A stretch of 64,000 bases of DNA from a virus (lineage: Duplodnaviria; Heunggongvirae; Uroviricota; Caudoviricetes): positions 10,296 to 74,295 of the IMG/VR virus record IMGVR_UViG_3300047476_001337; one strand, written 5' to 3'. Shown here in pieces: positions 3,587 to 57,459 of the stretch (the stretch's first letter is position 1; each line of letters begins with the position of its first letter). Below the pieces are notes generated by a model that did not search any database, was not told the DNA's origin, and was given only the letters and a program-made list of their open reading frames with translations. A program made the translations under genes and the position numbers.

Positions 3587-3895
3587 TCATGAACATTGCT
3601 TGTTATAAATCTTAACAAGTTGTTTCCCAAATAAATCAACAAGGAAATGATAAAGGCCATCGCTATGTTTCCCTAATGGTATGCCATAATCCTCAACATA
3701 TCTATAGGCGAGCAAATCACAGGCTTCAGAAACAAAATCACCAGCAGAATTAAACTCACAAGGAATCAACTCATCTTCAACAAGGCTCTTCATATCATCT
3801 TCCATTCTATCAAAGTCCAACCTCCTACGAGAGGTGGTGGATAGTTGTTCCATCAATGCGGTTCTATACTGTGATTCGGTGATAACGTATTTCAT
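3587..3895 (-). CDS. hypothetical protein carrying the N-terminal leader MKYVITESQY
   Basis: I placed the start at the ATG giving MKYVITESQ. This leader motif is shared with 12503..12865, 33141..33425 and 56326..57459. Confidence 0.5.
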   Translation of the reverse strand: MKYVITESQYRTALMEQLSTTSRRRLDFDRMEDDMKSLVEDELIPCEFNSAGDFVSEACDLLAYRYVEDYGIPLGKHSDGLYHFLVDLFGKQLVKIYNKQCS

Positions 3896-3919
3896 ACAAT
3901 CATAAATACCCCCACACAC

Positions 3920-4216
3920 TTATTTAATTTCGAGGTCAATAACTTTATTATTCATTTTTTCCCAATGTGATACAACCTTTGTTCTAATCAAATACTTTAT
4001 AATGGGAATTATCTCATTAAGCTTTTTGCAATAATCTGGTGATACCCAATAAAAATCATACGTCAGAATAAACCATTCAGATACATCACGAGTCATCCTA
4101 TTCAAATACCCTTCCACATGTTGTGAAACAAGATAATATGGATGGTCTATTAACTTTTGGGTTATGTAATCATCTATCTGAACAGCTCTTCTTTTTATAT
4201 ACGGTGGGATAATCAT
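3920..4216 (-). CDS. hypothetical protein
   Basis: Track ORF 3920..4306, trimmed to an internal Met to avoid an 89-nt overlap with 4218..4607; the start is uncertain. Confidence 0.4.
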   Translation of the reverse strand: MIIPPYIKRRAVQIDDYITQKLIDHPYYLVSQHVEGYLNRMTRDVSEWFILTYDFYWVSPDYCKKLNEIIPIIKYLIRTKVVSHWEKMNNKVIDLEIK

Positions 4217-4217
4217 A

Positions 4218-4607
4218 TTAATCACGTAATGGAGATGGAATAATTCTAAATTTCTTATATGAATGGTTAATTTCCAACCAAAGTCCAAAATACTTAACGG
4301 TATCAAAACTGTTCTTCAAACCCAAGGTCCTTTCAAGACCATGAAAAATATCGTCCTTAACCAAAAATATTTGCTGGGGAACCATTACCGCACCAACAAG
4401 CGTATTATCATCCCTCATTAAATAAATGTGGTCATTATCAATACCTGCCAAATAAAGGGTGTATTTACCAAATCTCTTGGTTATATAATGTAACGATATT
4501 TCCATTAACTTATCCAAATGAATAACCCTATCTCCACCTAACTTATGTCTTTCTATATAAACCAAAGCATCCCCCAATGTGACTGGACCATTTTTATTTT
4601 TTTTCAT
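4218..4607 (-). CDS. small-paralogue family member F (129 aa) with an internal LGGDRVIHL motif
   Basis: Shares the [KR]x[KR]MGGDxGIHL motif with five tandem ORFs downstream. Confidence 0.5.
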   Translation of the reverse strand: MKKNKNGPVTLGDALVYIERHKLGGDRVIHLDKLMEISLHYITKRFGKYTLYLAGIDNDHIYLMRDDNTLVGAVMVPQQIFLVKDDIFHGLERTLGLKNSFDTVKYFGLWLEINHSYKKFRIIPSPLRD

Positions 4608-4608
4608 A

Positions 4609-4785
4609 TTACAATTTATCGTCCTCTTTAATTATAGGGTCTTTTTTTAAGAACTCCAAATGAATCCCCTTGTCTTCCCCCATTCTAGCTCTTGATATTA
4701 CAAGTTCTAGTTTTTTCTTATATTCTTCAGTATAATCATACTGGCCAAAAGTATAATATTCAGTTTCCATTTTTTCAGTTTCCAT
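4609..4785 (-). CDS. small-paralogue family member A (59 aa; METEKMETEYY...RARMGEDKGIHLEFLKK...)
   Basis: Hand-translated; it falls below the 60-aa track cutoff. Conserved MGEDKGIHL motif; the reading frame was checked. Confidence 0.45.
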   Translation of the reverse strand: METEKMETEYYTFGQYDYTEEYKKKLELVISRARMGEDKGIHLEFLKKDPIIKEDDKL

Positions 4786-4945
4786 TTTCTATATCGATGT
4801 CCAAGTTTATTTGGGGGGTGTTTTTTAAGAATCCCAAATGAATACCTTTGTCTTCCCCCATAATAGCTCTTGACATTATAAAGGTAAGTTCTTCCAAAAA
4901 CTCGTCATCAGGTTTATAATCATTCAAAGTATATTCAGTACCCAT
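4775..4945 (-). CDS. small-paralogue family member B (57 aa; MGTEYTLNDYKPDDEF...AIMGEDKGIHLGFLKN...)
   Basis: Hand-translated; conserved motif. Its start lies 10 nt downstream of the palindrome AATTTTCCAGAAAATT. Confidence 0.45.
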   Translation of the reverse strand: MGTEYTLNDYKPDDEFLEELTFIMSRAIMGEDKGIHLGFLKNTPQINLDIDIENGN

Positions 4946-4954
4946 TTTTTCAAA

Positions 4955-4970
4955 AATTTTCCAGAAAATT
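4955..4970. promoter_or_regulatory. imperfect palindrome AATTTTC-CA-GAAAATT, copy 1, just upstream of a start codon
   Basis: The same 16-mer with a shared A-rich flank recurs at 6477..6492 upstream of the HNH endonuclease gene. Confidence 0.4.
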
Positions 4971-4975
4971 CTTTT

Positions 4976-5113
4976 TTACAATTTGACCCCTTCTTGAATT
5001 AGGGGGTCTTGTTCTGGGGAAACAACTAAATGAATCCCCTTATCTCCACCCATCTTATCTCTTAAAATTGATGTACGTATTTTTTCAATAGCTTCATCAT
5101 GTAGATTCCTCAT
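4976..5113 (-). CDS. small-paralogue family member C (45 aa; MRNLHDEAIEKIRTSILRDKMGGDKGIHLVV...)
   Basis: Hand-translated; conserved motif. Confidence 0.4.
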   Translation of the reverse strand: MRNLHDEAIEKIRTSILRDKMGGDKGIHLVVSPEQDPLIQEGVKL

Positions 5114-5331
5114 TTCGTTGAGGATTGTTTCAAAGTCCATTTCCCCCATAATAATATCTTCTTATCCTTTAACTTGTATTCCAAATGAATTCCTTCATCT
5201 CCTCCCATCTTTTTTCTTTCACGGAGATTCTCCATAGCTTCCATGATTTCTAAAATAGGATAAGATTCATGGGTGACAATATTGTATGCCCCAAACATAC
5301 CATTGTTTATTATCATATCTTTAGTTTCCAT
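5110..5331 (-). CDS. small-paralogue family member D (73 aa; ...RERKKMGGDEGIHLEYKLKDKK...)
   Basis: Track ORF; conserved motif. Confidence 0.5.
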   Translation of the reverse strand: METKDMIINNGMFGAYNIVTHESYPILEIMEAMENLRERKKMGGDEGIHLEYKLKDKKILLWGKWTLKQSSTK

Positions 5332-5500
5332 CTTCAGTATTTTTAACTATTGAATGAATACCCTTGTCTCCCCCCATCTTAAATCTAATTCGTCCAGTAT
5401 ACAGGTCATCATATATTTGAATATCTGATTCACCAAACATATTAATATCAAAGTCACCAAACATATGATAATCTACAAAAACTTGATTATTAGGTTCCAT
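5321..5500 (-). CDS. small-paralogue family member E (60 aa; MEPNNQVF...RFKMGGDKGIHSIVKN...)
   Basis: I moved the start to the ATG that follows the -7 box TACCTTTG (5504..5511). Confidence 0.5.
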   Translation of the reverse strand: MEPNNQVFVDYHMFGDFDINMFGESDIQIYDDLYTGRIRFKMGGDKGIHSIVKNTEDGN

Positions 5501-5520
5501 CTCACAAAGGTACAACAAAA

Positions 5521-5544
5521 AACCCACACTACCAAATGTGGGGG
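5521..5544. terminator. bidirectional intrinsic terminator hairpin CCCACA...TGTGGG flanked by an A-run and a T-run
   Basis: 6-bp perfect stem between the HNH gene and paralogue E. Confidence 0.5.
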
Positions 5545-5625
5545 TCTTTTTTACCGTTCAGGAATATTGACAATAATATACCCCCCATTTATAACCTATA
5601 TTCCCGTTCAGGAATATGTGGGTCT

Positions 5626-6438: not shown

Positions 6439-6476
6439 TTTAACCAATATAGTAAAGGGACCTCATTTTTCCAAAA

Positions 6477-6687: not shown

Positions 6688-6715
6688 CTATATGACATTA
6701 ATTTGACGTGGGGGT

Positions 6716-10032: not shown

Positions 10033-10338
10033 ATGGAAGTATCTGAAAAAATGATTAAGAAAGTATTAGAACACTTGGTTTCACCTAAGTGGAATGGTAT
10101 TGTGGAATATAATATTGAACCTTCTACACACGATGATACAGGTGTTGTGTACTACATGATAGATGTTATATTTGATATTAATAAGTATTGGTCAATATAT
10201 CACGCAGGTAAATATGATTATCCAGTAGAAATGGATATAGAGATTGAAACTGATGTTAGAAACGCGATGAAGTATTTGGGTATTAACACAACATTTGTAA
10301 CAATGTATGTTAGGGATGAAGATGGAATTTGGAAATAA
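10033..10338 (+). CDS. hypothetical protein (101 aa)
   Basis: Third gene of the plus-strand island. Confidence 0.55.
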   Translation: MEVSEKMIKKVLEHLVSPKWNGIVEYNIEPSTHDDTGVVYYMIDVIFDINKYWSIYHAGKYDYPVEMDIEIETDVRNAMKYLGINTTFVTMYVRDEDGIWK

Positions 10339-10353: not shown

Positions 10354-10692
10354 TTATGGACAAACATATTGATGCATAAGACGTAATTTCTCACCGTATT
10401 TGTCTCTAGCATATTTCTCCATCATCTTATACGCTTCCCCCCACTCAGGTGAACTATTACTAACATCACTAAAGTAATCCCAATAGATTGTATCTAATGT
10501 TTTGGATATTGTTGCATCAATAAAATCATCCTCATCAATTTCACACATAGAATATTGGTGATTGACTTCATCTGCAGATACAAAGATTAACTCATCAACA
10601 TTACGTATTCTTCTTTGTGCGGCAACCAAAAGATTGGCCTCATTTAATCCCATCATCTCTTGTATTCTATTTACCTGCTCTTGTAAGTTCAT
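10354..10692 (-). CDS. hypothetical protein (112 aa)
   Basis: ORF whose stop overlaps the start of the upstream gene by 4 nt. Confidence 0.5.
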   Translation of the reverse strand: MNLQEQVNRIQEMMGLNEANLLVAAQRRIRNVDELIFVSADEVNHQYSMCEIDEDDFIDATISKTLDTIYWDYFSDVSNSSPEWGEAYKMMEKYARDKYGEKLRLMHQYVCP

Positions 10693-11420
10693 TTCTTTTT
10701 CTTCACACAGTTAGGGTATCTTTTACCGAACATTGTCTTCATACCTTTTTGAGTATAACCTGCCCAACATCTTTCAGTTAGTTCACCCTCTTTAATTTCT
10801 TTGAGTCTATTCTTTGGCATTGATTTGATGATTGAGAAGTTATACCCCCAAGTATTTCCCTCATCACCAATACTCTTTATCCTTAACGGACGGCTATTCA
10901 TTGTACCTGAGAATGTATCTTCAGGATATTCATTAATACTATCCAATTTATTTTTTACCTCATCCCAATCAACATCAACCCAATCACCATACTTCGTTAT
11001 CATTTCATCAAATGACTTAAAACCTTCGGCAAATCCACGCCAATCTCTATTACCATAAGGTTTATCGTGTTTAACAAAGATATAGGTTTCACCTGTTGAA
11101 CTTCTTTCCTCTTCTTCCGCATCTCTTTGTCTTTTCTCAAAATATTGTGTTAACTCTTCACTGTAATTGTCTGTTATATACTCTTTAATCTCATCCCAAA
11201 CTTTATAATATATTGTATCATCATATTCAAAATTGTCTGGCATAACTTTATACATCACTTGTGTGATTGCTGTCAACACACTATCTTCTATTGGTTGATT
11301 TTTTTTGAAAGCCCCCATCTTATATTGGTTTAATATCTTTTCAATATCCCCAAATTTTAACCTACGTCTTATTGATGGTGTAAGTTCCTCTCTTAATATT
11401 CTTCTAATCAGGTCTTTCAT
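10689..11420 (-). CDS. MKDLIRRILREE-leader family protein 1 (243 aa)
   Basis: Shares the N-terminal MKDLIRRILREE with the two upstream paralogues; the C-terminal part is unrelated. Confidence 0.6.
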   Translation of the reverse strand: MKDLIRRILREELTPSIRRRLKFGDIEKILNQYKMGAFKKNQPIEDSVLTAITQVMYKVMPDNFEYDDTIYYKVWDEIKEYITDNYSEELTQYFEKRQRDAEEEERSSTGETYIFVKHDKPYGNRDWRGFAEGFKSFDEMITKYGDWVDVDWDEVKNKLDSINEYPEDTFSGTMNSRPLRIKSIGDEGNTWGYNFSIIKSMPKNRLKEIKEGELTERCWAGYTQKGMKTMFGKRYPNCVKKKK

Positions 11421-11422: not shown

Positions 11423-11965
11423 TTAATAAAAAGTCTTTACACCCATGTATTTTGATAAATTGTATTTATCTATTATCTGTTTGAAGATTTGTTGTCTGTA
11501 TCTTTTACCTAATGTGTTTCGTTTGTTAATATGAACATAACCAAACCCTGAATCACCACTTCTCCCAACAACTTTGTAATAGTTTTGGTTATGAAGTTTT
11601 GTCGGTACTAAGTTAGCTGTGAACGAGTATAAATAGAGATTCTTGGAACCAAATCTAAATTTACCCAATTCTTTTTCAACCGAATTATACAAAAATTGCG
11701 ATTTTTTATCTTCAAACCCAAGTTCATCAACTAACGCCTTATGTAAATATAAATCCATTCCGTCCGTTGACAAGTAAGCAAGTGGAGTTGTTGTTTCTTC
11801 ACTAAACTTAATTATATCACCGTCATAAAGAATTTTTATTAAACTATCTACCCCACCCATAACTTTGGCAGCAGTTTCTAATCCTGATTTTTTTATCATG
11901 GATTTAATGGCGTCTTTTTTAGATTCAGTTTCCTCTCTTAATATTCTTCTAATCAAATCTTTCAT
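11423..11965 (-). CDS. MKDLIRRILREE-leader family protein 2 (180 aa), a tandem paralogue of 11968..12501
   Basis: Near-identical to the next gene over its whole length; a ~545-bp tandem DNA duplication is visible. Confidence 0.6.
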   Translation of the reverse strand: MKDLIRRILREETESKKDAIKSMIKKSGLETAAKVMGGVDSLIKILYDGDIIKFSEETTTPLAYLSTDGMDLYLHKALVDELGFEDKKSQFLYNSVEKELGKFRFGSKNLYLYSFTANLVPTKLHNQNYYKVVGRSGDSGFGYVHINKRNTLGKRYRQQIFKQIIDKYNLSKYMGVKTFY

Positions 11966-11967: not shown

Positions 11968-12501
11968 TTAATAAAAAGTCTTTACACCCATGTATTTCGA
12001 TAAATTGTATTTATCTATTATCTGTTTGAAGATTTGTTGTCTATATCTTAGACCTAATATATTTTTTTTATTAATAAAACTATAACCAAATCCTGAATCA
12101 CCACTTGTTCCAACGACTCTATAATATTTTTGGTCATGAAGTCTTGTTGGAGTTAATGTGGCGCTGAAAGCATATTTCTGACCATTCTTGGAACCATAAG
12201 CGAATTTACCTAATTCTTTTTCAATACGGCTACCCCATGGCATATCTTTTAGTCCAAGTTCATTAACTAATGCCTCGTGTAAATATAAATTCATTTTATC
12301 CAAAGACATATAAGCAAGTGGAGTATTTGTTTCTTCACTAAACTTAATCATATCCCCATCATAAAGAATTTTTATTAAACTATCTACCCCACCCATAACT
12401 TTAGCAGCAGTTTCTAATCCTGATTTCTTTATCAGGGATTTAATAGCATCTTTTTTGAATTCAGTCTCTTCTCTTAATATTCTTCTAATTAAATCTTTCA
12501 T
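11968..12501 (-). CDS. MKDLIRRILREE-leader family protein 3 (start placed at MKDLIRR)
   Basis: Paralogue of 11423..11965; start placed at the conserved leader. Confidence 0.6.
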   Translation of the reverse strand: MKDLIRRILREETEFKKDAIKSLIKKSGLETAAKVMGGVDSLIKILYDGDMIKFSEETNTPLAYMSLDKMNLYLHEALVNELGLKDMPWGSRIEKELGKFAYGSKNGQKYAFSATLTPTRLHDQKYYRVVGTSGDSGFGYSFINKKNILGLRYRQQIFKQIIDKYNLSKYMGVKTFY

Positions 12502-12502: not shown

Positions 12503-12865
12503 TTAGCAATAATGTTCATCTTTTATATCCTGAATCAAATGACCGCCAGTAAATTTATCGGAATACCTATTGTTAAAATAATCAATTATTACCTTAGTAA
12601 TTTCTTTTTTAGACAAACCGAAAGACCTTCCATATTGTGTTAATCGTTTCCAATCACCACAACTTGCAACCCAAAGATTCCCCCACCTATTCTTATGGAA
12701 AGATAATGACTTACTATTAGGTGGGTACCACCTAACATAACCTTCACCATCATTTTCAACAACAAAGTCTTTTAACACTCTATCAAAAAAATGACTCAAG
12801 ACATTGTAATGATTGTCCTCAGTCATTAAATTAGAAAGTTGGCTCTCTGTGATAATAAATCTCAT
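12503..12865 (-). CDS. hypothetical protein with the N-terminal leader MRFIITESQL
   Basis: Shares the FI(I/V)(T/S)E(S/T)Q(L/Y) leader with three other proteins in the window. Confidence 0.55.
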   Translation of the reverse strand: MRFIITESQLSNLMTEDNHYNVLSHFFDRVLKDFVVENDGEGYVRWYPPNSKSLSFHKNRWGNLWVASCGDWKRLTQYGRSFGLSKKEITKVIIDYFNNRYSDKFTGGHLIQDIKDEHYC

Positions 12866-12881
12866 ATATCAATAAATATAA

Positions 12882-13209: not shown

Positions 13210-13749
13210 TTACGTATAGAGTTCTTTATCTACCAATCCACAAAGAAAGGTAGAAACCAATTCAGCTTCAGGGTTTCTCCAAGCGTGATTAAGATATACA
13301 TCAGCATTTTTATGGTAATGATAGTGGTTCTTATCCAAATGTTCTTGGGCGGCTTTTGCCGTAAAAAAAGAATTAGTGTATTCGGGAACCAACGAATATG
13401 AATGTTCTACAATATCCGAAACACGTTCCTGTAACCAATCTACAAGGTCAGATTGCCATGAATACTCAGCTCTATTGTCCCACATTTCTTTAATTTCATC
13501 TTCAACAAATTCAATTTCAAAATCATTCAAATATTCAATAAGTTGGTCATATGTTTCAATTTCAATACCATTACCTCTATCCAAAATTATATGAACATCA
13601 CCATTTAAGTCCGCATCATAAACTTTTTTCCAATCTCTAATTTGGAATATGTGTGGCATCCTCGTACCTCTTGGGTCCTGTGTTGTCATTTCTGTTGCGA
13701 GTTCAATTAACTTCACATACATTTCGTCTGATAGTTCTATTGTTTTCAT
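13210..13749 (-). CDS. hypothetical protein (179 aa)
   Basis: Long ORF followed by a terminator. Confidence 0.6.
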   Translation of the reverse strand: MKTIELSDEMYVKLIELATEMTTQDPRGTRMPHIFQIRDWKKVYDADLNGDVHIILDRGNGIEIETYDQLIEYLNDFEIEFVEDEIKEMWDNRAEYSWQSDLVDWLQERVSDIVEHSYSLVPEYTNSFFTAKAAQEHLDKNHYHYHKNADVYLNHAWRNPEAELVSTFLCGLVDKELYT

Positions 13750-13781
13750 TATGATAAAGAGTTAGGTAAAAATACTATATT

Positions 13782-14525
13782 TTATTTATATTTCCAAATA
13801 AAACCACCCGATGTTTTTTGTTTATGTCTCAAACATCCATTTATTGATTTGTAGCATAAATTTAATTCTTTCGATGCTTTTAACGCGTTAACCCATTCTT
13901 TTATAAATTTACCATCTAATGAGTATTGTAAAACAGGTTTGGATTTTACATGAGGTAATCCAGTACGGGTCAGGTATCTTTTATAATTGTTATTATCACC
14001 TTTCGCAGAATCGCTCATCTTGTTTTTAGTTTCAAGTGATTTTGATTTACCTTTTGAAGATTCGCTCATTTTCTTTTTTGTTTCATTAGTAACTTTTTTA
14101 CCAATTGCGGATTTACTCATCTTCAATTTGGTTTCCTCATTGTGTTTTTTACCGTACCAAAACGGTTTTAACACACCATTTACAACCAATTCATCGTCTT
14201 TAGATATTCTAAAAACTTTACCATTTTCATCAACATATTGCCCTAACCCTACAGTTTTGAACCCAACACCTGGAATGTGAGCGTTTTTATTTAATTTATC
14301 GGAACGATGAGTGATAATCAATTTTCGTTCATAACTAATACATTGTTCTCTATCTTGAAAATCAAATTTGATTATAGTTTTTACCAATGTTTTTTTATCA
14401 GGTTTCCAAGATTTCATAGAACCCAAATAATAAATGTCTTTATTGGGTTCAACTTTGGAGGTTCTGCTTCCGAAGTAATACTCCCCTGTTTCAGGTAATT
14501 CTAATTTATAAACATAATGATACAT
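13782..14525 (-). mobile_element. GIY-YIG homing endonuclease (Seg/I-TevI-like) with three NUMOD3 repeats and a C-terminal NUMOD1/IENR1 HTH
   Basis: N-terminal YVYKL...GEYYFGS (GIY-YIG), repeats ETKLKMSKSAIGKK / TKKKMSESSKGKS / ETKNKMSDSAKG, and a C-terminal VLQYSLDGKFIKEW...GGFIWKY. I placed the start at MYHYVYKL; the track N-terminus is hydrophobic junk. Confidence 0.8.
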
Positions 14526-14571
14526 ACACAATAAATATATCATGACATTCAAAAAAACAATTTTAAGAAAA

Positions 14572-15180
14572 TTAAAGTGAATTAGGGTAATATAATAAAG
14601 TGGGATTCTTTTTAGCAATATCAGGCACATCACCTTGTAATGACATAATCTTATTGAACTCCATTACGTCAAATCTACCTGTGATTAAATGAAAACCATT
14701 TTTGGTTGGGATAGTTGCGTATATTTTATTTCCTTCGGGTCTACATTCATTAACAAGCCTCATAATCCTTAAAAGGACTTCCTCATCTTTCATATCAACA
14801 TCAACAATCCATCTCTTCTCTTGGGTTTTGATTTGACCAACAACCGAATCAAATAAGCCTTTTTGGTTAGTTTGACCATTTTGTAGTCTTTGAGCTAATT
14901 CAACCATCATATTAAAAGATACATCTTTGTGGTTTTGTTTTTGAACATGAATGTAAGCACGAGCTTTGAACATCTCACAAAGTTGTTTAATCTCATCATA
15001 CCTACGCTCAAGATGTCCAATACTTTCAATACAATAAGTCTTAATTGTTCTTACCGATTGGTGGTTATCTCTTTCACCCTCAGGTTGGTCTTTCTTTCTC
15101 TTGAATACATAAAGCATGTAGAAGTCACCTTTATCAGTGAAGTTCAAAAGTGGTTTAATTATTTCTAAGTTATCAATCAT
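14572..15180 (-). CDS. hypothetical protein (202 aa)
   Basis: Long ORF with no recognisable motif. Confidence 0.55.
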   Translation of the reverse strand: MIDNLEIIKPLLNFTDKGDFYMLYVFKRKKDQPEGERDNHQSVRTIKTYCIESIGHLERRYDEIKQLCEMFKARAYIHVQKQNHKDVSFNMMVELAQRLQNGQTNQKGLFDSVVGQIKTQEKRWIVDVDMKDEEVLLRIMRLVNECRPEGNKIYATIPTKNGFHLITGRFDVMEFNKIMSLQGDVPDIAKKNPTLLYYPNSL

Positions 15181-15466
15181 TTTCTTTGTTAATTTCTTTT
15201 AGATGTTTCAATAATTTATCTGCCTGATAATTCATTCTGACTAATGTTTTTGTTGATTCAGGATATTCGTGACATTCCATAATTCCAAATGATTCGTTAG
15301 ATTTACGGTTACCATTATCCTCCCACCATTTGTTTAATTTATCCGTGTTACCTAAATTACAAGTCCTTTCAATTGGTGTATATTTCCCATCAATCCAATC
15401 ATATTTTGACAACGCATGGACACACTCATTGCATCCACTTTTTTCATATAAGATGTCGTTAGTCAT
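15173..15466 (-). CDS. hypothetical Cys/His-rich protein (97 aa)
   Basis: ORF with CNEC...CNLG...ECHEY cysteines; overlaps its neighbours by 8 nt. Confidence 0.5.
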   Translation of the reverse strand: MTNDILYEKSGCNECVHALSKYDWIDGKYTPIERTCNLGNTDKLNKWWEDNGNRKSNESFGIMECHEYPESTKTLVRMNYQADKLLKHLKEINKEND

Positions 15467-17922: not shown

Positions 17923-18489
17923 TTAATACGACAACTGAACAAACATCTCTTTTATAGGTAATTTTTCATGAAGTGCGTTCCAAAAAGCTTTATGGTAATC
18001 ATCATATAAGTCTTTTTTTAATCCAACATAAAGTATAAATTCAGGATAAGAAACACCTCTTTGTCTAATTGATATTTCATTAAGTTCTGGCAAATTTGTT
18101 TCAGTTTCAATCCAATATTCCATTTCAACCTCGTCCCACTTATCATAAATCATTTTCTCAATCATTTTGATAAAATCATCCTTTTTATCAATTACAAAGG
18201 TTGTTAAAAGTTCATAAGAATCAACACCAATATACTTAACATTATCAGATATAATGTCTTCAGCATTAATCATAAAATCATAATATTCTTCATTATATTC
18301 ATCTGTAACATTGTTAAACTTAAATGGGTCAACGTGAATGTTTACTACGTATTTACGCCAAGATGGATATCCCCCACTTTTGTGTTGAGCAGCCGAAATA
18401 GGTTCAACATCAATTTTAATATTTCTCTTATCAAATAATAATTTTGATAATAGTTTTTCAATTTGTTTCGCCTTTTGTTTACGGTCCAT
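17923..18489 (-). CDS. hypothetical protein (188 aa)
   Basis: ORF in the same-strand array. Confidence 0.55.
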   Translation of the reverse strand: MDRKQKAKQIEKLLSKLLFDKRNIKIDVEPISAAQHKSGGYPSWRKYVVNIHVDPFKFNNVTDEYNEEYYDFMINAEDIISDNVKYIGVDSYELLTTFVIDKKDDFIKMIEKMIYDKWDEVEMEYWIETETNLPELNEISIRQRGVSYPEFILYVGLKKDLYDDYHKAFWNALHEKLPIKEMFVQLSY

Positions 18490-18896: not shown

Positions 18897-19193
18897 ATGT
18901 ATCAATCAGATAAAATGTTGGCAGTTAAAAAACTGTTAGATAAATTAATCAAACCAAAACATCCAAATATTATTAGATTTGATGTTCGTGCTTATGATAC
19001 TGACAAAATGGGTTCAATTCCACATATTTATGTTTACTTAAAAGACCATGATGATGAAGACGAACTTAACATAGATTGGGAAATTAAAGATGTTTTAAGA
19101 TATCTCACAATTAAAAATCACATGGTAAGATTCACACTTGGTGATGACAATGATGACACACATTCTCGATATGTAGGAAGAGATTGGCAGTAA
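18897..19193 (+). CDS. hypothetical protein (98 aa) on the plus strand
   Basis: Sits in a gap with no minus-strand ORF and is followed by a plus-strand hairpin AGAGGA...TCCTCT with a T-run (19255..19282). Confidence 0.55.
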   Translation: MYQSDKMLAVKKLLDKLIKPKHPNIIRFDVRAYDTDKMGSIPHIYVYLKDHDDEDELNIDWEIKDVLRYLTIKNHMVRFTLGDDNDDTHSRYVGRDWQ

Positions 19194-19324: not shown

Positions 19325-19759
19325 TTACAAACCAGAAGTATAACACTCCTCGATTGTAAAATAGTATTGTTCTTTTGATAGATATTCCATCGTTGGGTGT
19401 GGGTCGAAACAAGGTTTCAACATTCCATCGTCATTTTTATATATAACACAATGTGGTCTATTTCTTTTTGATAAACCTCTCATAATAACATAAGGTTGAA
19501 CTGTTGGTTCATCCTTATCATGTACTTTGAAACATTTATTGTATTTCAATATTAACCACTGATTCAATACTTGGAACCAAACATTTTGTTCGATGTTCTC
19601 ATGTTTTACACCAAGATTATAAAATGTATAGATATTTGGTATCTCATCAATTGGTTCCTCTAATATTGAAGCAACACAAGCAATTAAACAATTACCATAT
19701 GTCAATCTTGTCCCATCCGAAAAGAAAAGGGAATTTTTAGTTTGTGAAATAGGTTTCAT
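19325..19759 (-). CDS. hypothetical protein (144 aa)
   Basis: ORF; a GNCLIACVASIL motif is weakly reminiscent of cysteine peptidases but I could not classify it. Confidence 0.5.
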   Translation of the reverse strand: MKPISQTKNSLFFSDGTRLTYGNCLIACVASILEEPIDEIPNIYTFYNLGVKHENIEQNVWFQVLNQWLILKYNKCFKVHDKDEPTVQPYVIMRGLSKRNRPHCVIYKNDDGMLKPCFDPHPTMEYLSKEQYYFTIEECYTSGL

Positions 19760-20760
19760 GAATCTTCTTTTGTAAAATTATAATCGAAATCAAAGTCCAC
19801 ATTGAATGAAGTTAATAATGGTTTCAACTTTTTATAAATCATGTCATTAAAATCTTCGGACCAAATCCATTCAGGAACATCATGGTAACTAGCACTTACC
19901 CAAGTGTCATCCTCTTCATTACCAATCATTAGTCTATTGATTGTTAAATGTACAGTTCCCTCATATCTAGTTGGTTCATCATCATCCATATCATTAATTA
20001 CTTTCCAAAAAGTTGTATCGTTATCATCAAAACTATACTCAATATAAACATCAACTCTTTCATTATTATCATATGGTTCTGTGAACCAAGATTCAAATGT
20101 TGAGTTGTCAGGAATATATTTTTCTATTAATGAGTTAAATATTTGAGTAGCCTTACCATCATATTCATCTTTTGACTCTTTGATAGTTTTTGGTTCTAAT
20201 GGTGGGTCCAACAAAAATCTTTGATTAACCCAATTTCTTAATTCGTTTTCAACAAAGTACTCAGGTACTGGCTCATCATTAGGTTGTTCAGAAGCTAATT
20301 GTGAAATGTATCTTGCAAACTTAACTTTATTTTCTTCATCTAACATCCTCATTAAACCATCACTAACAAAGAATATTTTACTAAATGGGTCAGATGGGTT
20401 TAACTCACCCTCTGCAATGTCAAATAGTCTTAAAATAGTTTTACCCCACCACGTTTTATAGTTGGTTGTTTCAGTTAACGCAGGTTTTAATATTTTATTT
20501 GCAGCTCTAATAGATGCACCTATAAATCCTGCAACCGCAACCTGTGGAAAAAACCAAGGTAACAAACGTAAAAACGCTTTGTAACCACCTTCACCAATAT
20601 GAAGTCTAACTCTTTTACTCATCGCAGCCTCAACAATTGCTTTGAGTTGTCCAAATGTTATTGGACCTTGAGCCTTACAAAATTTTTCAGAATCACAGAT
20701 AGATTTAATAACCCTTTCCGATGGTTCTACTTCAATTTCATTGATGTTTAATTTAGACAT
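19756..20760 (-). CDS. hypothetical protein (334 aa; start placed at MSKLNINEIE)
   Basis: The track start at 20796 would lie inside the terminator hairpin at 20789..20810, so I chose the downstream ATG. Confidence 0.55.
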   Translation of the reverse strand: MSKLNINEIEVEPSERVIKSICDSEKFCKAQGPITFGQLKAIVEAAMSKRVRLHIGEGGYKAFLRLLPWFFPQVAVAGFIGASIRAANKILKPALTETTNYKTWWGKTILRLFDIAEGELNPSDPFSKIFFVSDGLMRMLDEENKVKFARYISQLASEQPNDEPVPEYFVENELRNWVNQRFLLDPPLEPKTIKESKDEYDGKATQIFNSLIEKYIPDNSTFESWFTEPYDNNERVDVYIEYSFDDNDTTFWKVINDMDDDEPTRYEGTVHLTINRLMIGNEEDDTWVSASYHDVPEWIWSEDFNDMIYKKLKPLLTSFNVDFDFDYNFTKEDS

Positions 20761-20788
20761 TACATATAAATACCTGATAATTAAAAAA

Positions 20789-27021: not shown

Positions 27022-27566
27022 TTATCTTTTTTGTCTTTTCTTATAAACCACATGATTATTGGTCCTGGTATTAAAGATAAGAAAAAAATAACAATATTGT
27101 CAATTATTCGTTTCATATTATGATTTTTTTTTGAAATTACTTATCGCAATACCGAATAACCCACCCGATATAAAACAAGAAAGGATTGATAACAATCCTG
27201 TCATGTTAAATGATACAATAAGACATGTGATAGTGAAAAGTAAAAAGGTAAAATTATTCATGAACTCAATAAAGTTCAATTTTTTTTTACCATTTCTTTA
27301 ATCTCTGATAAAACACCAAGAAGTATAAAACCCAAAAATAAAGTTAAGAATGGGTGTTCTGACATTACATCAAATGCTTCTCTCATATTATGGTTGTTTA
27401 ATTTGTTGAGCCTCTTTAATTTTGATGGCTTCTTGAATCATGTTGTCGGTACTATTACCATACTGACAAGAACAGGTTGGTTTACCAGCCGCTCTTAATA
27501 TTTGTCTAGCTTCTTCTAAGTTCATAATATAATAAATACGTTTTTAAGTTATAATTGTAAAGAAAA

Positions 27567-33140: not shown

Positions 33141-33425
33141 TTAGTAAGGTATCTCTTCACTATTCCCGTGTTCTAATTTGTCATACATATAGGATTTGAA
33201 TGCTGATACCATTGATTGTTCTGCTTGGGCAATCTTGGTATTCATCCAATCTTCCAACTCTTCACCTTCAGGCATCGCTTCCCACATTTTATAAGCGGTA
33301 ACTGCTATGGTAAACAATTGTTGTTTTGCCATATAGTTTCCATCAGAACCTTCATTTGTTTCTGATTTCATATCTTCAACTATCTTCTTAAGTTGTGATT
33401 CACTAACTATAAAGTTTTTTCCCAT
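33141..33425 (-). CDS. hypothetical protein with the N-terminal leader MGKNFIVSESQL
   Basis: Member of the ITESQL-leader group. Confidence 0.5.
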   Translation of the reverse strand: MGKNFIVSESQLKKIVEDMKSETNEGSDGNYMAKQQLFTIAVTAYKMWEAMPEGEELEDWMNTKIAQAEQSMVSAFKSYMYDKLEHGNSEEIPY

Positions 33426-33497
33426 ATCTTATAAATATACTTAAAGTAAAAAAGGTCAGACGAATCTGACCTTTTATTGGGATTGACCGAATTTCGG

Positions 33498-36205: not shown

Positions 36206-37960
36206 TTATTTGTTTACCACAACCTGATATACTATTTGGTTGTTTCCACCTTGTATGTGGAAGAAATACAATCCACTATTCAAATCAGACAAGTTTACAT
36301 TTACAAAGTTATTACCTGAGATAACATTCATTGTTGTTACCTTTCTTACCATTCTACCATTCAAATCTGTAATATACACATCAGCATTAAATCCTTTTGT
36401 CGATGTAAACTCAACGGTATATTCACCATTTGTTGGGTTAGGGTAAGAATTAACTGAAGTGATTTTACCTACTGATTTAACATGTAACACACCATATTGA
36501 CCTAAAACACCATATTCAAAGTTTGATGGGTAGTTTGTTGTTGGTCTAAAATCAGGTTGATTAAAGTCGTTTGTATTGACCAATATGCCTGGGTTGAAAG
36601 TGTTGGTATCAATAAAATTGTTGTTGATTGAATTACGAACCCAACTATCCAATAGATTTACATTACCACCTGAACTTACCTCAACCAAACCTGTATTAGT
36701 TGGTCCAACAGGTGCTGATGCTTTTACACCATAAATGTAATTGTTTCTGAACAAGTTGTTTTTATCTGAAATTATATTTGATTTAACACCTGAATTAATC
36801 AATACAGAATCACCATCAAACATTACGAAGTTTCTGTAACCCATAAAGATTGAGTTGATGATACTCAAACGAGAGTTTCTACGAATTCTTACTCCACGTC
36901 TAAATGCTCCCTTTTGTGTTGTAGTTAATTGAGACCATGTCATACCAGCAGGTACTGGACCAACACAAGTCATATTTGAGAATACTGCGGATGTCAATGG
37001 TAATCTACCTGAACCTGATGCGTCATTGTCCGATTCAAATGTTTCAGAAGTTGATGCCCCTGATGGTGCATTCCAAGACATATCATATAGTTGTGAATCC
37101 TTAAATGCAATACCAAATTGAACCGCGCCTCTGTATCCAAAGTCTGTATCAAAATCGTCATCAGTAGTTTTGAATGAGATTAGATGTTTACAGTTAACAG
37201 TACCACCAAACCATTCATACGAATCATCACCTGAGTATGAAACTTGAACATGGTCAACTGTAGTATTTCTTCCAACCGAAGCAAATGTTAATCCATTAAT
37301 TTCTTTGTTGGGTTCAAACGCCAAACCACAAAATTCAATCCTTGTATATCTGATTAGACCACTATTATCATCATCGTTGATTCCACCATGCTTTGCTAGT
37401 GTTGAGTTTGTTGAAATGTTATTAAATCCTTCAACTTGAATGTCAGTACCTTGGTTATTTCTTGCCTTACCACAGATAACGATTCCACCCCAATCACCTC
37501 TACCTTTATATCCAATATCCTTTGCCGATGTAAACACAACAGGACTATTTGAAGTTCCTTCACATGAAATATAACCACCTCTTTCAACTATAATTGTTGC
37601 ATATTGTTTTGGTGTCATACTCAAATTCGCAATACCTCTGATTATAGTTCCAGCAGGGATAATCAATTTACCACCGTCTCTAACAACAACAATACTTCTT
37701 AATACGTAAGTACGTTTTGCAACCAAAGTTACAGTTCCAGTAATTTCAACAATACCTGTTGGACTATTGAAAGCCGTAGTGTCCCATCCATAATCCGCAG
37801 CCCAATAAATGCTTTTAGGGTTCCAATGTGTCCATCCACTGGTCCAATCTTTTGATTTGTCAGCCGATAAGGCTCCAACGTAATCAACTTTCTCAAAGAA
37901 TTGAGCATGTCCTGTAATACACAACAAGACCGATAATAATGTAAAAATTATTTTTTTCAT
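36206..37960 (-). CDS. secreted beta-helix-like protein (584 aa) with a T9SS type-A C-terminal sorting domain (Por_Secre_tail)
   Basis: Signal peptide MKKIIFTLLSVLLCITGHAQ. The C-terminal ~80 aa (SYPNPTNGEYTVEF...ADVYITDLNGRMVRKV...LSDLNSGLYFFHIQGGNNQIVYQVVVNK) match the type-A T9SS CTD. Gly/Asn/Asp/Thr-rich repeats in the middle suggest a parallel beta-helix, which would fit a depolymerase or lyase. Confidence 0.8.
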   Translation of the reverse strand: MKKIIFTLLSVLLCITGHAQFFEKVDYVGALSADKSKDWTSGWTHWNPKSIYWAADYGWDTTAFNSPTGIVEITGTVTLVAKRTYVLRSIVVVRDGGKLIIPAGTIIRGIANLSMTPKQYATIIVERGGYISCEGTSNSPVVFTSAKDIGYKGRGDWGGIVICGKARNNQGTDIQVEGFNNISTNSTLAKHGGINDDDNSGLIRYTRIEFCGLAFEPNKEINGLTFASVGRNTTVDHVQVSYSGDDSYEWFGGTVNCKHLISFKTTDDDFDTDFGYRGAVQFGIAFKDSQLYDMSWNAPSGASTSETFESDNDASGSGRLPLTSAVFSNMTCVGPVPAGMTWSQLTTTQKGAFRRGVRIRRNSRLSIINSIFMGYRNFVMFDGDSVLINSGVKSNIISDKNNLFRNNYIYGVKASAPVGPTNTGLVEVSSGGNVNLLDSWVRNSINNNFIDTNTFNPGILVNTNDFNQPDFRPTTNYPSNFEYGVLGQYGVLHVKSVGKITSVNSYPNPTNGEYTVEFTSTKGFNADVYITDLNGRMVRKVTTMNVISGNNFVNVNLSDLNSGLYFFHIQGGNNQIVYQVVVNK

Positions 37961-54034: not shown

Positions 54035-54385
54035 ATGGAAAACAAAATCAAAATTTATTGGAACAAAGTATCTGAGAGCGTTAAGAAGTTTTTCTCACAT
54101 GTTTTTTGGGTTGCCTTGGTAGTTACAGGACTTGGCATAGGTTTTGGAGTAGGGTTCTACTACAAACAAATAAAAACAGTTGAGATGCCATCAAAAATGG
54201 TTGTCATTGAAAAACAAGACATCATTTTGGCTGTCGATGAAAACCAAAGACTTATGGTTATAGATAAAAGTACTGGTAACTATACCATCTACGATAACGA
54301 AATCGGTAAGACAATCTTCACCCTATATGCTCGTAACATTTGGGGTCAACACAATCCAAATCAAACACCAACACCTGTAAAATGA
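54035..54385 (+). CDS. membrane protein (116 aa, one TM helix), holin/spanin-like by position
   Basis: TM segment VFWVALVVTGLGIGFGVGFYY; its stop overlaps the start of the transglycosylase gene (ATGA). Confidence 0.55.
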   Translation: MENKIKIYWNKVSESVKKFFSHVFWVALVVTGLGIGFGVGFYYKQIKTVEMPSKMVVIEKQDIILAVDENQRLMVIDKSTGNYTIYDNEIGKTIFTLYARNIWGQHNPNQTPTPVK

Positions 54386-54942
54386 GAAATATAAATTTCA
54401 AGACCGCTATCTTCTTATGGTTCCTCGTAATCTTCGGAGGTATCGGTCTTGCAATTTATGGTGTGAATCGAATCGAAGAACAAGCCGAGGAACAATACTT
54501 GGAACAGATGGGTGGTGAACCTAATGCACCTGCTTGTCTTAAAATGTACAACAGTATTGAAAAGTACTCAAAAAAATATAAAGTCCCAAGGTATGTTGCT
54601 TACAATGTTGCATACAGGGAAACTCGTTATCAAGGACCGTTTCATTGGTCTTATAGTCCTAATCACATATCTTCAGCTAGCGCTATGGGTCCAATGCAAA
54701 TCATCACAAGATGGGCTCACAGTTATGCTGGTAGACATGTTACAGCAAATGAATTATTAACCAATATTGATTTGAATGTTATGGTTAGTATGAAAATGTT
54801 AAGAGCCCGATACAACATGTATCATAGTTGGGCATTAGCTTGTGGTGGATACAATACTGGTTCACCAATCATTAATGATTACGCACACTACTGTGCAACT
54901 AACAAAGATTACAAACGTAATTGGATTAGGTATTCTCGTTAA
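54382..54942 (+). CDS. lytic transglycosylase (SLT-domain) with an N-terminal TM anchor; putative endolysin
   Basis: TM segment AIFLWFLVIFGGIGLAIYG; YRETRYQG...SSASAMGPMQI resembles the SLT motifs ES...S.AGA.GLMQ. I placed the start at the ATG overlapping the upstream stop (the track start 54340 lies inside the previous gene). Confidence 0.65.
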   Translation: MRNINFKTAIFLWFLVIFGGIGLAIYGVNRIEEQAEEQYLEQMGGEPNAPACLKMYNSIEKYSKKYKVPRYVAYNVAYRETRYQGPFHWSYSPNHISSASAMGPMQIITRWAHSYAGRHVTANELLTNIDLNVMVSMKMLRARYNMYHSWALACGGYNTGSPIINDYAHYCATNKDYKRNWIRYSR

Positions 54943-56326
54943 TCTTCTCTTGTAACTTAGTAACAAATTCGTTTTGAAGTCTCTTAAGAGCTTGAACGTA
55001 TGGTGCATCCTCTTCACTACCAAATCTTGGAGCTGTCTTAGGTGGTCTTCTACTTCTTGCCAAGTAATTGATACCTGATATGTTTGTTATACATTTGTGT
55101 CCACCTGAATTTGCCTGAATTAAATCCCAAGCGTTTACACCAAACTTATCTAAGAACTGAAATTCTTCCTCAGTCAATTCTCTTGCTGGTTTGTTCATTA
55201 ATGATTCTAACGTATTCAAAAACTCTCTACCTTGTTCTGAACCACTGAACTTATCACCGTAAATTGCTTTGAAGTCTTTGAATGTAAATCCAACTGACTC
55301 AGGACCCGCCTTACCCTCAGATATCCATTTAACAGTAGATAAAGGAATTACTGTAGACTTCATCTTGTCTTCGTGTTTACTTAATACTTCTTGAGCAATA
55401 TCACCCAAGTTAACACCTTTAAGTTCTCTTTCTTTCTTAAAAGGATTACAAGACGCTTGTAACAGACCCAATGGCCATGCAATAACTAAGAAGTCAGCTT
55501 CAGGGTTATTTTTGAATGGAGTGTATCTATCGTATGAACCAGGGTTCATCATGGAACCTCCACCGTATTGAACTATAATATTGCCAACCAATTTTACATT
55601 AGGACTTGATTTCATTGTGTCCATATATTGTTTGGCATTTTTTTGTAATTGTTCAGGACCAGGTAATCTTCTTGAACCCATCTCATTCTTAATTTGATTT
55701 AAGATTGAATACAATGATGGTTCAGAATTCATAACCAAGTTCTCTAAAAATTGTGGTTTGTTTTTGAATGCTAATAATAATTTATTTAACACCAAACCCA
55801 TCGCAAACTTATTCTTTCTTAAGTCAGCATCTTTATCCATTTTGAACAAATAGTTAACCACTTGTTCAGGTGTGATATCATATTTGGCATAATCCGCAGA
55901 ATCTACTGTAGATATTAATCTTAAGTCTGTCTCAGGAAAAATCTCTTTTGGTGAAACTATTTGTGATATTGTTTCAACATTAGAACGTGATGGTCTGAAA
56001 GATGTTGCCCCTGTTTCCTCAGCACCTGCTTGTCTATCATGGTGGTCTGTGTGAATCACAAACATTGGTTTACCATGAGCAAAGTCAACAAGTACCGGCA
56101 TTGTATCACCATTAGCATCAAGTTTCTTAACTGTAAATTCTTTATCACCATATTGGATAATTTCAGAATCAACCACTTTGATACCGTTATCCTCCAAATA
56201 TTTTTTCATGGCAATTGCCGTTGCAACACCATCCAAATCTTGGTGAAAATAAATTTTAGCTTTTGGATATCTTTTAGCCAAAGCTTTGATATCACGTAAT
56301 CCAGATTCTTTTAATAGTTTTTTCAT
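54926..56326 (-). CDS. DHH-DHHA1 family phosphoesterase (NrnA/RecJ-like)
   Basis: Motifs HQDLDG, VDFAH and HTDHHD (DHH), plus a C-terminal NSGGHKCITNISG (GGGH motif of DHHA1). Confidence 0.75.
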   Translation of the reverse strand: MKKLLKESGLRDIKALAKRYPKAKIYFHQDLDGVATAIAMKKYLEDNGIKVVDSEIIQYGDKEFTVKKLDANGDTMPVLVDFAHGKPMFVIHTDHHDRQAGAEETGATSFRPSRSNVETISQIVSPKEIFPETDLRLISTVDSADYAKYDITPEQVVNYLFKMDKDADLRKNKFAMGLVLNKLLLAFKNKPQFLENLVMNSEPSLYSILNQIKNEMGSRRLPGPEQLQKNAKQYMDTMKSSPNVKLVGNIIVQYGGGSMMNPGSYDRYTPFKNNPEADFLVIAWPLGLLQASCNPFKKERELKGVNLGDIAQEVLSKHEDKMKSTVIPLSTVKWISEGKAGPESVGFTFKDFKAIYGDKFSGSEQGREFLNTLESLMNKPARELTEEEFQFLDKFGVNAWDLIQANSGGHKCITNISGINYLARSRRPPKTAPRFGSEEDAPYVQALKRLQNEFVTKLQEKINENT

Positions 56327-57459
56327 TATAATGTTGCCGAACCTGTTAAAGGTCCAAATACTAATTTATTAATTATATCTTTAGTCCAGTCAGTTTCAGT
56401 TTCCTGTGTTCCGCTGTCCATAGTATCATTACTCATTGTTTCACCACCCATTGTATCATCAGGAACATTGGCAAAATCCTCATTCCAATTTTGTTGTGCC
56501 TCACCTGTTTGAGAATATTGATTCATTTTCTCATCGAACGCAGCACCCATTTTTTGTTTTAACTCTTCAGGTCCAACGAAATTTGCAACACCTAACCAAT
56601 CCAAAAATCCCGCCCAAAATTTAGTTCTTGTCATTAAACTTCTTGTCGCTCTATTACCAAATAATCTTGGTACACCACCAGCTTTATAATTTTTAAGTCC
56701 TTTCAAACCTTTTGCCGCGCCACCACCGAAACTTCTAAATAAGTTAGCATCTTGTTTCACAGCAGTTTGCATTTGTTTTAACACATTTATAGTTTCTTTT
56801 TGGGTTAATGGTTTTTTAACAGCCCTTCTCGCAATTGCTGAAGCTTTTTGAGTTCCTGAACCAACTTTTTCAAATAAAGTGACCCAATCTTTTAATGTAT
56901 TTCTTAAACCACTTGATAATTTACCACCAGGTATTTTATCAATAATTTGTTTTAATTTTGGTGCCCATCTTCTAACCATACCCATCAACTTACCCATCAT
57001 ACTATCACTCTTAGCAGCATCGGCAATTATTTTACTTGCTTCAGCCGTTTTACCTGCTTTAGCCAACCTAAGAGCTGAGTTTGTACTTTTTACTAATTTA
57101 CTACCTTTACCCGCCATCATTATCGGTTTTGCGGCAATGTCACCAACATAAGGTATTGCCGATATCATAGACAACATACCAAAAAACGTATCACCCTGAT
57201 ACAAATAAGACAATCCATTTGCAATATCTACAAGTCCTGTTGGGTCAAAAATACCAACCACATCACCTAATGTGTTGTACCAAGCTTCACTTAAAACACC
57301 ATTTGAATTAGGATATAAATCATTATAAATCTCATTAAATATTGTTTTGGCTTCGTCTGACATTGAATTATATTTCCCTTGGAACTCATTGTTTCTTTGT
57401 TCCATTAGATTTGTGTCAACAATTTTTTGTAATTGTGTTTCGGTAATAATTGCTTCCAT
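56326..57459 (-). CDS. hypothetical protein (377 aa) with the N-terminal leader MEAIITETQL
   Basis: Member of the ITESQL-leader group; the remainder is Ala/Lys/Gly-rich. Confidence 0.55.
   Translation of the reverse strand: MEAIITETQLQKIVDTNLMEQRNNEFQGKYNSMSDEAKTIFNEIYNDLYPNSNGVLSEAWYNTLGDVVGIFDPTGLVDIANGLSYLYQGDTFFGMLSMISAIPYVGDIAAKPIMMAGKGSKLVKSTNSALRLAKAGKTAEASKIIADAAKSDSMMGKLMGMVRRWAPKLKQIIDKIPGGKLSSGLRNTLKDWVTLFEKVGSGTQKASAIARRAVKKPLTQKETINVLKQMQTAVKQDANLFRSFGGGAAKGLKGLKNYKAGGVPRLFGNRATRSLMTRTKFWAGFLDWLGVANFVGPEELKQKMGAAFDEKMNQYSQTGEAQQNWNEDFANVPDDTMGGETMSNDTMDSGTQETETDWTKDIINKLVFGPLTGSATL

Follow-up and report, generated by a model that had tools for sequence, protein, structure and literature searches.

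Why do proteins of one virus that are otherwise unrelated begin with the same short peptide? The question arises from the window, the 64 kb stretch of DNA analysed here (positions 10,296 to 74,295 of the IMG/VR virus record IMGVR_UViG_3300047476_001337), in which an earlier note had pointed out two recurrent N-terminal leaders. The first of them, motif A, has the consensus M-x-h-I-I-T-E-S-Q-L in the window and was looked for with the pattern [ILV][ILV][TS]E[TS]Q in a six-frame translation (127,996 residues). Exactly four matches were obtained, all of them at residues 3–12 of minus-strand open reading frames (ORFs) with starts at 3895, 12865, 33425 and 57459. Composition alone would give 0.15 matches in the whole translation and 0.0008 at N-termini; in 2000 residue shuffles, four or more N-terminal hits never arose. 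The second leader, MKDLIRRILREE (class B), was matched three times in the six frames, only at the ORF starts 11420, 11965 and 12501. The seven N-termini read as the earlier note had given them. We propose, with moderate confidence and by analogy with the capsid-targeting sequence (CTS) of phage T4, that the leaders would be propeptides which target proteins to the capsid and are processed by the prohead protease.

A third leader class that the note had overlooked, MNLQEQVNRIQEMMGLNE (class C), was found on the gene 10354–10692, so that the window holds at least eight leader genes, these eight being all on the minus strand. When the first 18 residues of the eight proteins were removed, all pairs gave E > 1 except one tandem pair, 11423–11965 and 11968–12501, whose products are 77% identical. 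The earlier note had described both this duplication and the lack of relationship among the four motif-A proteins, and the comparison bore it out on the two points. The third motif-B protein (10689–11420) had only the 12-residue leader in common with both tandem paralogs. Paralogy of the leader proteins was rejected because their bodies were unrelated in the BLAST comparisons. Searches of Pfam and PHROGs with the eight proteins returned nothing significant, the weak PHROG matches being to the CW...PNC C-terminus of 10689–11420.

Since 10354–10692 carries the class-C leader, the operon running from 12865 to 10354 is made of five consecutive leader genes in the order A-B-B-B-C. The first, 12503–12865 (120 amino acids), bears the leader MRFIITESQLSNLMTE at 12818–12865, and its ortholog, beginning MKIIITESQLSNLM, is 79% identical in L034 and L082 (L-numbers label the compared loci, L123 being T4 and L209 Flavobacterium phage immuto). 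It is followed by the tandem pair, 11968–12501 (177 amino acids; leader MKDLIRRILREE at 12466–12501, with LRE at residues 9–11) and 11423–11965 (180 amino acids; leader at 11930–11965). The 11968 ORF is open to 12519, with the upstream residues MNIIAN; the Met at 12501 is the more probable start, since MKDLIR is retained in relatives behind unrelated upstream residues. The last two genes are 10689–11420 (243 amino acids; leader at 11385–11420), which has a C-terminal CWAGYTQKGMKTMFGKRYPNC motif, and 10354–10692 (112 amino acids), whose leader occupies 10639–10692 with LNE at residues 16–18.

The three other leader-A genes are dispersed. The 102-residue product of 3587–3895 begins with MKYVITESQYRTALME (3848–3895; ITE at residues 5–7, LME at 14–16), is 41% identical to a homolog in L053 and has a cargo unrelated to the other leader proteins. 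The gene 33141–33425 (94 amino acids) has the leader MGKNFIVSESQLKKIVE at 33375–33425, with VSE at residues 7–9 and IVE at 15–17; its homolog in L115, beginning MGRIIITEEQLEEVV, is 61% identical and reads IITE. The largest, 56326–57459 (377 amino acids), has the leader MEAIITETQLQKIVD at 57415–57459 and is conserved, with 687 homologs in which the leader was retained down to 41% identity and lost in some lineages. The best conserved part of this family lies at residues ~58–112 of the protein (containing NEAWWNTLGDVVGIFDPTG and FFGMLSMISAIPYVGD), an invariant and hydrophobic segment with a predicted local distance difference test score (pLDDT) below 50, which may be a membrane-inserting or oligomerising segment.

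The motif M-x-x-I-I-T-E-[ST]-Q-[LF], back-translated into DNA, was used to search the IMG/VR database and gave at least 119 loci; nearly every match was a true ORF start on a low-G+C contig. Motif A stood at residue 3 in 183 ORFs of the compared loci, versus about four cases deep inside an ORF. Four leader classes spanning 11–23 residues were distinguished: class A (222 distinct proteins), M-K-[IY]-I-I-T-E-S-Q-[LFY]-x-x-[LI]-[IV]-(E); type 2 (50 distinct copies), MKK[IV][IV][RK]LTESDLx[RNK][IL]V[KR][RK][VI]IxE; class B (14 copies), M[KR][DEQ][LI]I[RK][RK][IV]L[KR]E; and class C (19 distinct copies), MNLQExIxRIxxMM[GIN][LI]xE. Examples of the peptides are MKIIITESQLKKLIEE, MKKIVRLTESDLTRIVKRVINEQ, MKDLIRRILREETE and MNLQEQVNRIQEMMGLNEA. 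About 345 leader ORFs fell into 138 cargo clusters unconnected by BLAST (an earlier class-A set comprised 222 ORFs and 112 clusters). The two leaders of the earlier note were therefore too few, the phenomenon extending to four classes and more than 100 cargo families.

The cargo is 50–620 amino acids long, and its recognisable domains begin 15–58 residues after the start. The Pfam domains observed were Phage_lysozyme, Peptidase_M23 with GH19 or PG_binding_1, Hydrolase_2 with PG_binding_1, CCA-adding/PolyA_pol, HD, sigma-70 of the extracytoplasmic function (ECF) type (Sigma70_r2/r4), DHH and L5_gp82. Four kinds of cell-wall hydrolase are thus found among the cargo. Most cargo had no match in Pfam or PHROGs, and a PHROGs search with ten large cargo proteins came back empty.

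The leaders behave as exchangeable units. Eight cargo families bear different leader classes in different members, and within these families homology begins right after the last (L/I)-x-E of the leader, as in MKIIITESQLELINE/ALGVPD (...ELINE/ALGVPD) and MRDLIKKILKE/EVGVPR (...KILKE/EVGVPR), where a slash marks the junction. In the zinc-ribbon family the leader starts either with MRYIITESQLNKIIE or with MNLQEQIQRIQEMMNLVTE. Residue 1 of the DHH-family gene of the window (54926–56326, minus strand), which has no leader, aligns with residue 10 of orthologs that carry leader A and begin MKIIITESQ; because the window copy lacks exactly these residues, the leader can be regarded as a detachable unit. 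The product of 19756–20760 (334 amino acids) is likewise without a leader behind a late-type promoter, and its homolog in L088 (65% identical, 377 amino acids) starts with leader A (MKIVITEEQY...) and is longer at its N-terminus by about 185 residues, a hydrophobic stretch among them. In L043, L051 and L007 one syntenic slot, located between a 171-amino-acid LVPITRLGKFFG gene and a 346-amino-acid gene upstream of the tail sheath, holds either a 57-amino-acid zinc-ribbon or a 137-amino-acid L5_gp82-like leader protein, which makes the slot an exchangeable cassette for leader genes within the tail module.

Because the codons are free to vary, it is the peptide on which selection acts. The conserved Ser of the motif-A leaders in the window is encoded by TCA, AGC and AGT, most third positions differ, and in 105 distinct leader genes the codons used could not be told from those of the gene bodies at six of the seven conserved leader positions. 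This agreement in codon use led us to reject an explanation at the RNA level as the main cause.

What the four classes have in common is a hydrophobic residue two positions before a Glu. In class A the Glu was present in 218 of 222 leaders and I, L or V at position P3 in all 222; type 2 had LTE in 50 of 50, with a second x-E ten residues further on in every copy; class B had L-x-E in 14 of 14; in class C the hydrophobic-x-E came nearly always right after MMG. By way of background, (L/I)xE occurs at 1.2% of the positions of the window proteome, and 12% of the other window proteins have an (L/I)xE with its E at residues 5–12. The earlier note had placed an (I/L)-x-E in both leaders. This held for ITE and LRE, the exception being 33141–33425, which has V-S-E first and I-V-E further on; apart from it, the leaders carry in their sequence the (L/I)-x-E that would be expected of a capsid-targeting peptide. 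In the AlphaFold2 model of the 377-amino-acid protein, which is all-helical (mean pLDDT 61.7), residues 1–6 form a coil and a helix starts at residue 7, so that the putative site would lie, at the low confidence of the model, at an exposed junction.

Two other kinds of N-terminal peptide were considered. A Sec or lipoprotein signal has a charged n-region and a hydrophobic core of 7–15 residues, whereas the leaders have 3–4 hydrophobic residues followed by T-E-S-Q or R-R-I-L-R-E-E; true signal peptides, such as MKRLLFLFAFLFSFLSVQA, exist in the window on its type IX secretion proteins. A Sec-type signal was rejected on this composition. The leaders do not look like those of precursors of ribosomally synthesised and post-translationally modified peptides either, as their cargo includes folded enzyme domains and not short hypervariable core peptides; those Pfam scans that were made with window proteins detected no domain of a modification enzyme, adjacency not being specifically tested in them.

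A second common element lies upstream of the genes. The sequence (G/A)TATTTAT was present 5–12 nucleotides upstream of all four motif-A genes of the window: as GTATTTAT at 3902–3909 (6 nucleotides before the ATG at 3895) and at 57471–57478 (11 nucleotides before the ATG at 57459), and as TATATTTAT at 12872–12880 (6 nucleotides before the ATG at 12865) and 33431–33439 (5 nucleotides before the ATG at 33425), all on the minus strand. The last two genes in map order stand behind a terminator-like hairpin, formed upstream of 33425 by ggtcagattcgtctgacc and a T run. In the window the motif preceded 4/4 motif-A genes versus 8/102 (8%) other genes (p = 1e-4), and in the related loci 47% of leader-A genes versus 21% of other genes (p = 3e-14). 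When it was counted within 45 nucleotides upstream of gene starts in the relatives, it was found before 44 of 44 portal, 35 of 36 protease, 39 of 47 terminase, 11 of 12 sheath, 5 of 5 neck and 2 of 2 tube genes; it also precedes the terminase and portal genes of immuto. Judging from the class of the genes downstream, TATTTAT is probably the late promoter of the clade, and the leader genes would then be expressed late, together with the head proteins. Its distance of 5–12 nucleotides from the start codon implies very short 5' untranslated regions. Further (G/A)TATTTAT positions in the window are 19756–20766 and, on the plus strand, those before 10033, 18897, 35661 and 53669. When reverse-complemented, the motif reads as the T4 late promoter TATAAATA, although its orientation is the opposite one.

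Is there a prohead protease that could cut such sites? Homologs of T4 gp13, gp17, gp18, gp19 and gp20 were present in the leader loci, and at least 600 IMG/VR stretches were found around the portal gene, 72–77% identical among the 80 listed. Encoded on them are a terminase, the portal, a protease of 227 amino acids that belongs to Peptidase_S77 (E = 7e-24; in L142 at 13318–14001), an acidic gene resembling a scaffold (396 amino acids in L142, at 14082–15272) and the Gp23 capsid protein (E = 6e-74). The protease is 31% identical to T4 gp21, its sole solved relative (PDB 5jbl), and keeps the motifs ELNHP and SSRG, which we take to contain the catalytic His and Ser of the gp21 structure. Its database relatives at E ≤ 1e-20 number over 5,600, and identity is at least 88% throughout the 120 that were listed. 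Linkage to leader genes was established by matching contig names after a DNA scan for the protease motifs: a contig of 286,845 bp (L009 and L368) and one of 60,393 bp (L119 and L366) each hold a leader-A gene together with gp17, gp20 and gp21. The search for a prohead protease and for further leaders, which the earlier note had advised, thus gave many leader copies and an S77 protease with scaffold and Gp23 in the clade and on leader-bearing contigs; the head module of the genome from which the window comes lies beyond the 64 kb, identical fragments on record being no longer than 2–13 kb, and the linkage is seen in relatives. The clade capsid protein has an invariant ...YLINE/AAV... where T4 has its maturation site ...FLTE/AEI..., and the clade scaffold and protease begin with SILE and GILIE where those of T4 begin with LIAE and LLIE. 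T4 gp21 itself (L123:18449-19087) has E-I-T-E-S-Q, with five residues identical to the leader-A core, at about residues 184–189 of its C-terminal tail, where C-terminal autoprocessing is expected; from its sequence this is a candidate site.

The window (32% G+C, almost all coding on one strand, no tRNA genes) is part of a clade of T4-like giant phages that is uncultured and very abundant. DNA and protein searches with its genes against 50,697 deposited phage genomes (INPHARED) found no close relative; contigs in IMG/VR as long as ~333 kb are related to it. Contigs of this kind come from freshwater and marine samples (for example IMG 3300027804, 3300027621 and 3300042892). Judged by its capsid protein (43% identity), Flavobacterium phage immuto comes closest among cultured phages. 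The window also encodes RNA ligases, a DHH phosphoesterase, a glutamine synthetase, a guanylate kinase, a methyltransferase and a NUDIX enzyme. Two proteins, 28499–33034 (1511 amino acids) and 36206–37960 (584 amino acids), have Sec signal peptides and C-terminal sorting domains of the type IX secretion system (CHU_C and Por_Secre_tail), the larger one also a PKD domain; they are apparently exported by this system of the host, which would be a clue to Bacteroidota. A 248-kb contig with a protease 80% identical to the clade protease queried (that of L142) was binned in a metagenome-assembled genome of Flavobacteriaceae. From these secreted proteins, this bin and the similarity of the immuto capsid, the host would belong to Bacteroidota/Flavobacteriia, and that of the clade is probably a member of Flavobacteriia.

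We propose the following course of events. The leader genes would be transcribed late, together with the head genes, with TATTTAT as their promoter. The leader, in which an amphipathic helix comes after a short run of hydrophobic residues, would bind the scaffolding core of the assembling prohead, so that the cargo is enclosed. The gp21-type serine protease (Peptidase_S77) would then cut after the conserved (L/I)-x-E and free the cargo inside the head. The cargo would finally be ejected with the DNA and could act either in the periplasm, as expected for peptidoglycan hydrolases, or in the cytoplasm, as for the ECF sigma factor, the HD, DHH and CCA-adding enzymes and many proteins of no recognised kind. 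Head loading followed by trimming is the simplest way to account for the findings, and it is the sole explanation we found that fits periplasm- and cytoplasm-acting cargo behind one signal. The earlier note had already thought of capsid targeting and a prohead protease, and every comparative prediction of that idea which could be tested came out positive: modular leaders, selection at the peptide level, a conserved hydrophobic-x-E in all classes, Peptidase_S77, a scaffold-like gene and Gp23 on contigs with leader genes, and the head and tail promoter motif on motif-A genes. Its suggestion that the cargo includes anti-restriction factors found no support here. At slightly less than even odds in our estimation, the four interchangeable leaders may form a general cargo-loading system, by which dozens of proteins per virion, from more than 130 families, would be packaged, trimmed and injected.

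The closest precedent is T4. Its CTS is a 10-residue N-terminal propeptide common to unrelated internal proteins and removed by gp21 (PMC9026906; PMC3012670), and it sends even foreign proteins into the scaffolding core (PMC3012670; PMC9026906). As in the T4 internal proteins IPI, IPII and IPIII (CTS MKTYQEFIAE), a short N-terminal peptide ending in (L/I)-x-E is found here on unrelated proteins of a T4-like phage with a scaffolding core and a gp21-type protease; in both cases the genes for the cargo are accessory, variable and placed outside the head cluster. The differences are that there are four leader classes here, of 11–23 residues and conserved beyond the first Glu, and, at the level of sequence, more than 100 cargo families including enzymes, whereas T4 has three small basic proteins. 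No resemblance of the leaders to MKTYQEFIAE was seen by eye beyond the terminal x-E, and they are accordingly not members of the T4 internal-protein CTS sequence family. The closest T4 N-terminus is that of Alt, MELITE.

Alt is a packaged ADP-ribosyltransferase (MELITE/LFDE) cut at ITE-6 and, near its other end, at LTE-619 (PMC5694885). The same two tripeptides form the cores of leaders found here, ITE that of leader A and LTE that of type 2. The Alt propeptide has the h-I-T-E core at residues 3–7 of a packaged and ejected enzyme, like leader A; unlike it, it is six residues long, occurs on one protein (plus an alt.-1 fragment) and lacks the S-Q-L-x-x-L-I continuation, and the 4–5 residues in common are too few to judge common descent. 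LRE, the class-B core, is the first (L/I)xE of T4 gp24 (MAKINELLRE/S). Cleavage of gp24 presumably takes place at LRE-10 and that of gp23 at LTE-65 (FLTE/A).

Two more distant systems can be compared. The ejection or inner-body proteins of phiKZ-like phages, such as SPN3US gp53 and gp54 with their identical 15-residue N-terminus and AXE/SXE sites, are also diverged proteins that retain an N-terminal peptide with a prohead-protease motif, in giant phages that package and eject many proteins. These proteins are paralogs, with often much longer propeptides, an (A/S/G)-x-E motif and a protease distantly related to gp21, whereas here the cargo proteins have no relationship with each other and the protease clearly belongs to S77. 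Encapsulin cargo-loading peptides are likewise short, transferable and terminal and bring diverse enzymes into an HK97-fold shell, but they are usually C-terminal and uncleaved and work without scaffold or protease, so that the similarity is functional only. No description of the present leaders was found in the searchable literature; the motif strings gave nothing relevant, and a search on capsid targeting in jumbo phages returned only the SPN3US papers.

Several points weigh against head loading and trimming. Packaging, cleavage and ejection are steps that we infer from sequences, there is no cultured close relative among the deposited phages, and the link to the protease passes through relatives of the window. 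A scan of ~150 kb of immuto (three of four blocks of 40–50 kb; the 100–110 kb interval lay outside) found essentially no leaders, so that this phage is at best a weak model. Conservation continues past the first putative cut (S-Q-L-x-x-L-I), whereas the T4 CTS is wholly upstream of the cut; a second (L/I)xE exists in just about one third of the class-A leaders, one leader of the window has the V-S-E already mentioned at its first site, and (L/I)xE is a motif of low information. With ~7% of the window genes bearing a leader, 30–40 packaged species per genome would follow, which is many. Orthologs can lose the leader, as is seen for DHH and 19756–20760; the CCA-adding enzyme and the 57-amino-acid zinc ribbon are cargo without obvious reason for injection; and leader genes are rare near the head module (four in ~800 kb of portal loci).

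Alternatively, the leaders might be uncleaved docking or localisation peptides for another partner, such as an assembly factory, a membrane, a chaperone or an adaptor for timed degradation, with the Glu as part of a binding helix. Conservation past the Glu into an amphipathic helix, which starts at residue 7 in the AlphaFold2 model, the very diverse cargo with its housekeeping-like enzymes, the orthologs that manage without the leader and the large number of leader genes per genome are all in line with such a role. It leaves unexplained, however, why a hydrophobic-x-E, immediately followed by the cargo junction, closes each of the four differing classes, why their tripeptides equal proven T4 gp21 sites and why a promoter motif is held in common with head and tail genes; moreover, any one other destination would be ill-suited to both peptidoglycan hydrolases and a sigma factor. 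We consider docking unlikely.

It could also be that the common N-termini are a by-product of cassette shuffling, in which a promoter and the first codons travel together or 5' ends recombine, the peptide itself having little function. Leader genes are indeed often independent units (terminator, TATTTAT, ATG), slots such as the one upstream of the sheath hold either a 57- or a 137-amino-acid leader gene, and the motif-B copies of the window are in a tandem duplication with identical upstream DNA. Against this, the conservation of amino acids with free synonymous variation over hundreds of contigs requires purifying selection on the peptide, the head genes have the same promoter without a leader, and roughly every second leader gene has no promoter motif. 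Shuffling alone thus appears quite improbable. Least of all do we believe that the leader is a translation or mRNA element, an A/U-rich unstructured start boosting near-leaderless late transcripts in a host without Shine-Dalgarno pairing: the promoter motif ends 5–12 nucleotides from the ATG, giving very short 5' untranslated regions, and the leader codons are A/T-rich, but codon choice equals that of gene bodies at 6/7 positions with Ser encoded by both TCN and AGY, portal, protease and terminase share the motif with unrelated N-termini, and the specific residues kept (T-E-S-Q-L and the invariant E) are not needed for low RNA structure.

A few other features of the window and its relatives are recorded here. 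The 45-amino-acid ORF 27388–27525 (minus strand), which begins with MNLEEARQILRAAG (MNLEEARQIL...) behind a GTATTTAT motif at 27532–27539 (minus strand), is a possible degenerate class-C gene by resemblance alone and was kept outside the totals. The ~150 kb of immuto scanned have a single internal GIITESQF, in gp083 (L209:1675-2139) behind the class-C-like MKKQILSEQFRRMQKLAG; gp083 starts with MKKQILSEQFRRMQKLAGIITESQF, in which the leader-A core is joined to a segment resembling class C. Just upstream of the immuto head module, gp079, gp080 and gp072 start with MKKLIRIVE..., MKKSQLRQIIKE... and MKKSQIVKAVQEVLEE..., respectively, and it is possible that the N-termini of gp083 and of these neighbours are degenerate leaders in a cultured phage.

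The C-terminal motif CW(x)GY(x)3G(x)K(x)3GK(x)2PNC (window 10689–10775; L134:16567-16986; the zinc-ribbon proteins) recurs on unrelated phage proteins and gave weak PHROG matches to several families without assigned function. A second recurrent motif, RWFKEKWVDVSKK..GKHPPCGR, was seen in L142 and L191. At 4609–5500 the window has a tandem array of five small paralogous genes (56–73 amino acids, pairwise identity 36–61% over 23–56 residues). On the minority strand, 10033–10338 (+) and 18897–19193 (+) are distant paralogs, each directly behind TATATTTAT, and 17923–18489 has an N-terminus resembling them (...KLLSKLLFDK...).

Outside T4 and the phiKZ-like phages, little is known about which proteins giant phages carry in their heads and inject; normally a cultured phage and mass spectrometry are needed to learn this. 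If the leaders do load heads, the T4 CTS principle would scale to more than 100 cargo families, and the same short, naturally interchangeable peptides would be new tags for loading foreign proteins into phage capsids. The leader, a tag of about ten residues, would identify the packaged and ejected proteome straight from metagenomes and would by itself predict the injected proteome of thousands of uncultured phages, and would single out candidate effectors of host takeover and anti-defence, which for the most part have no known fold.

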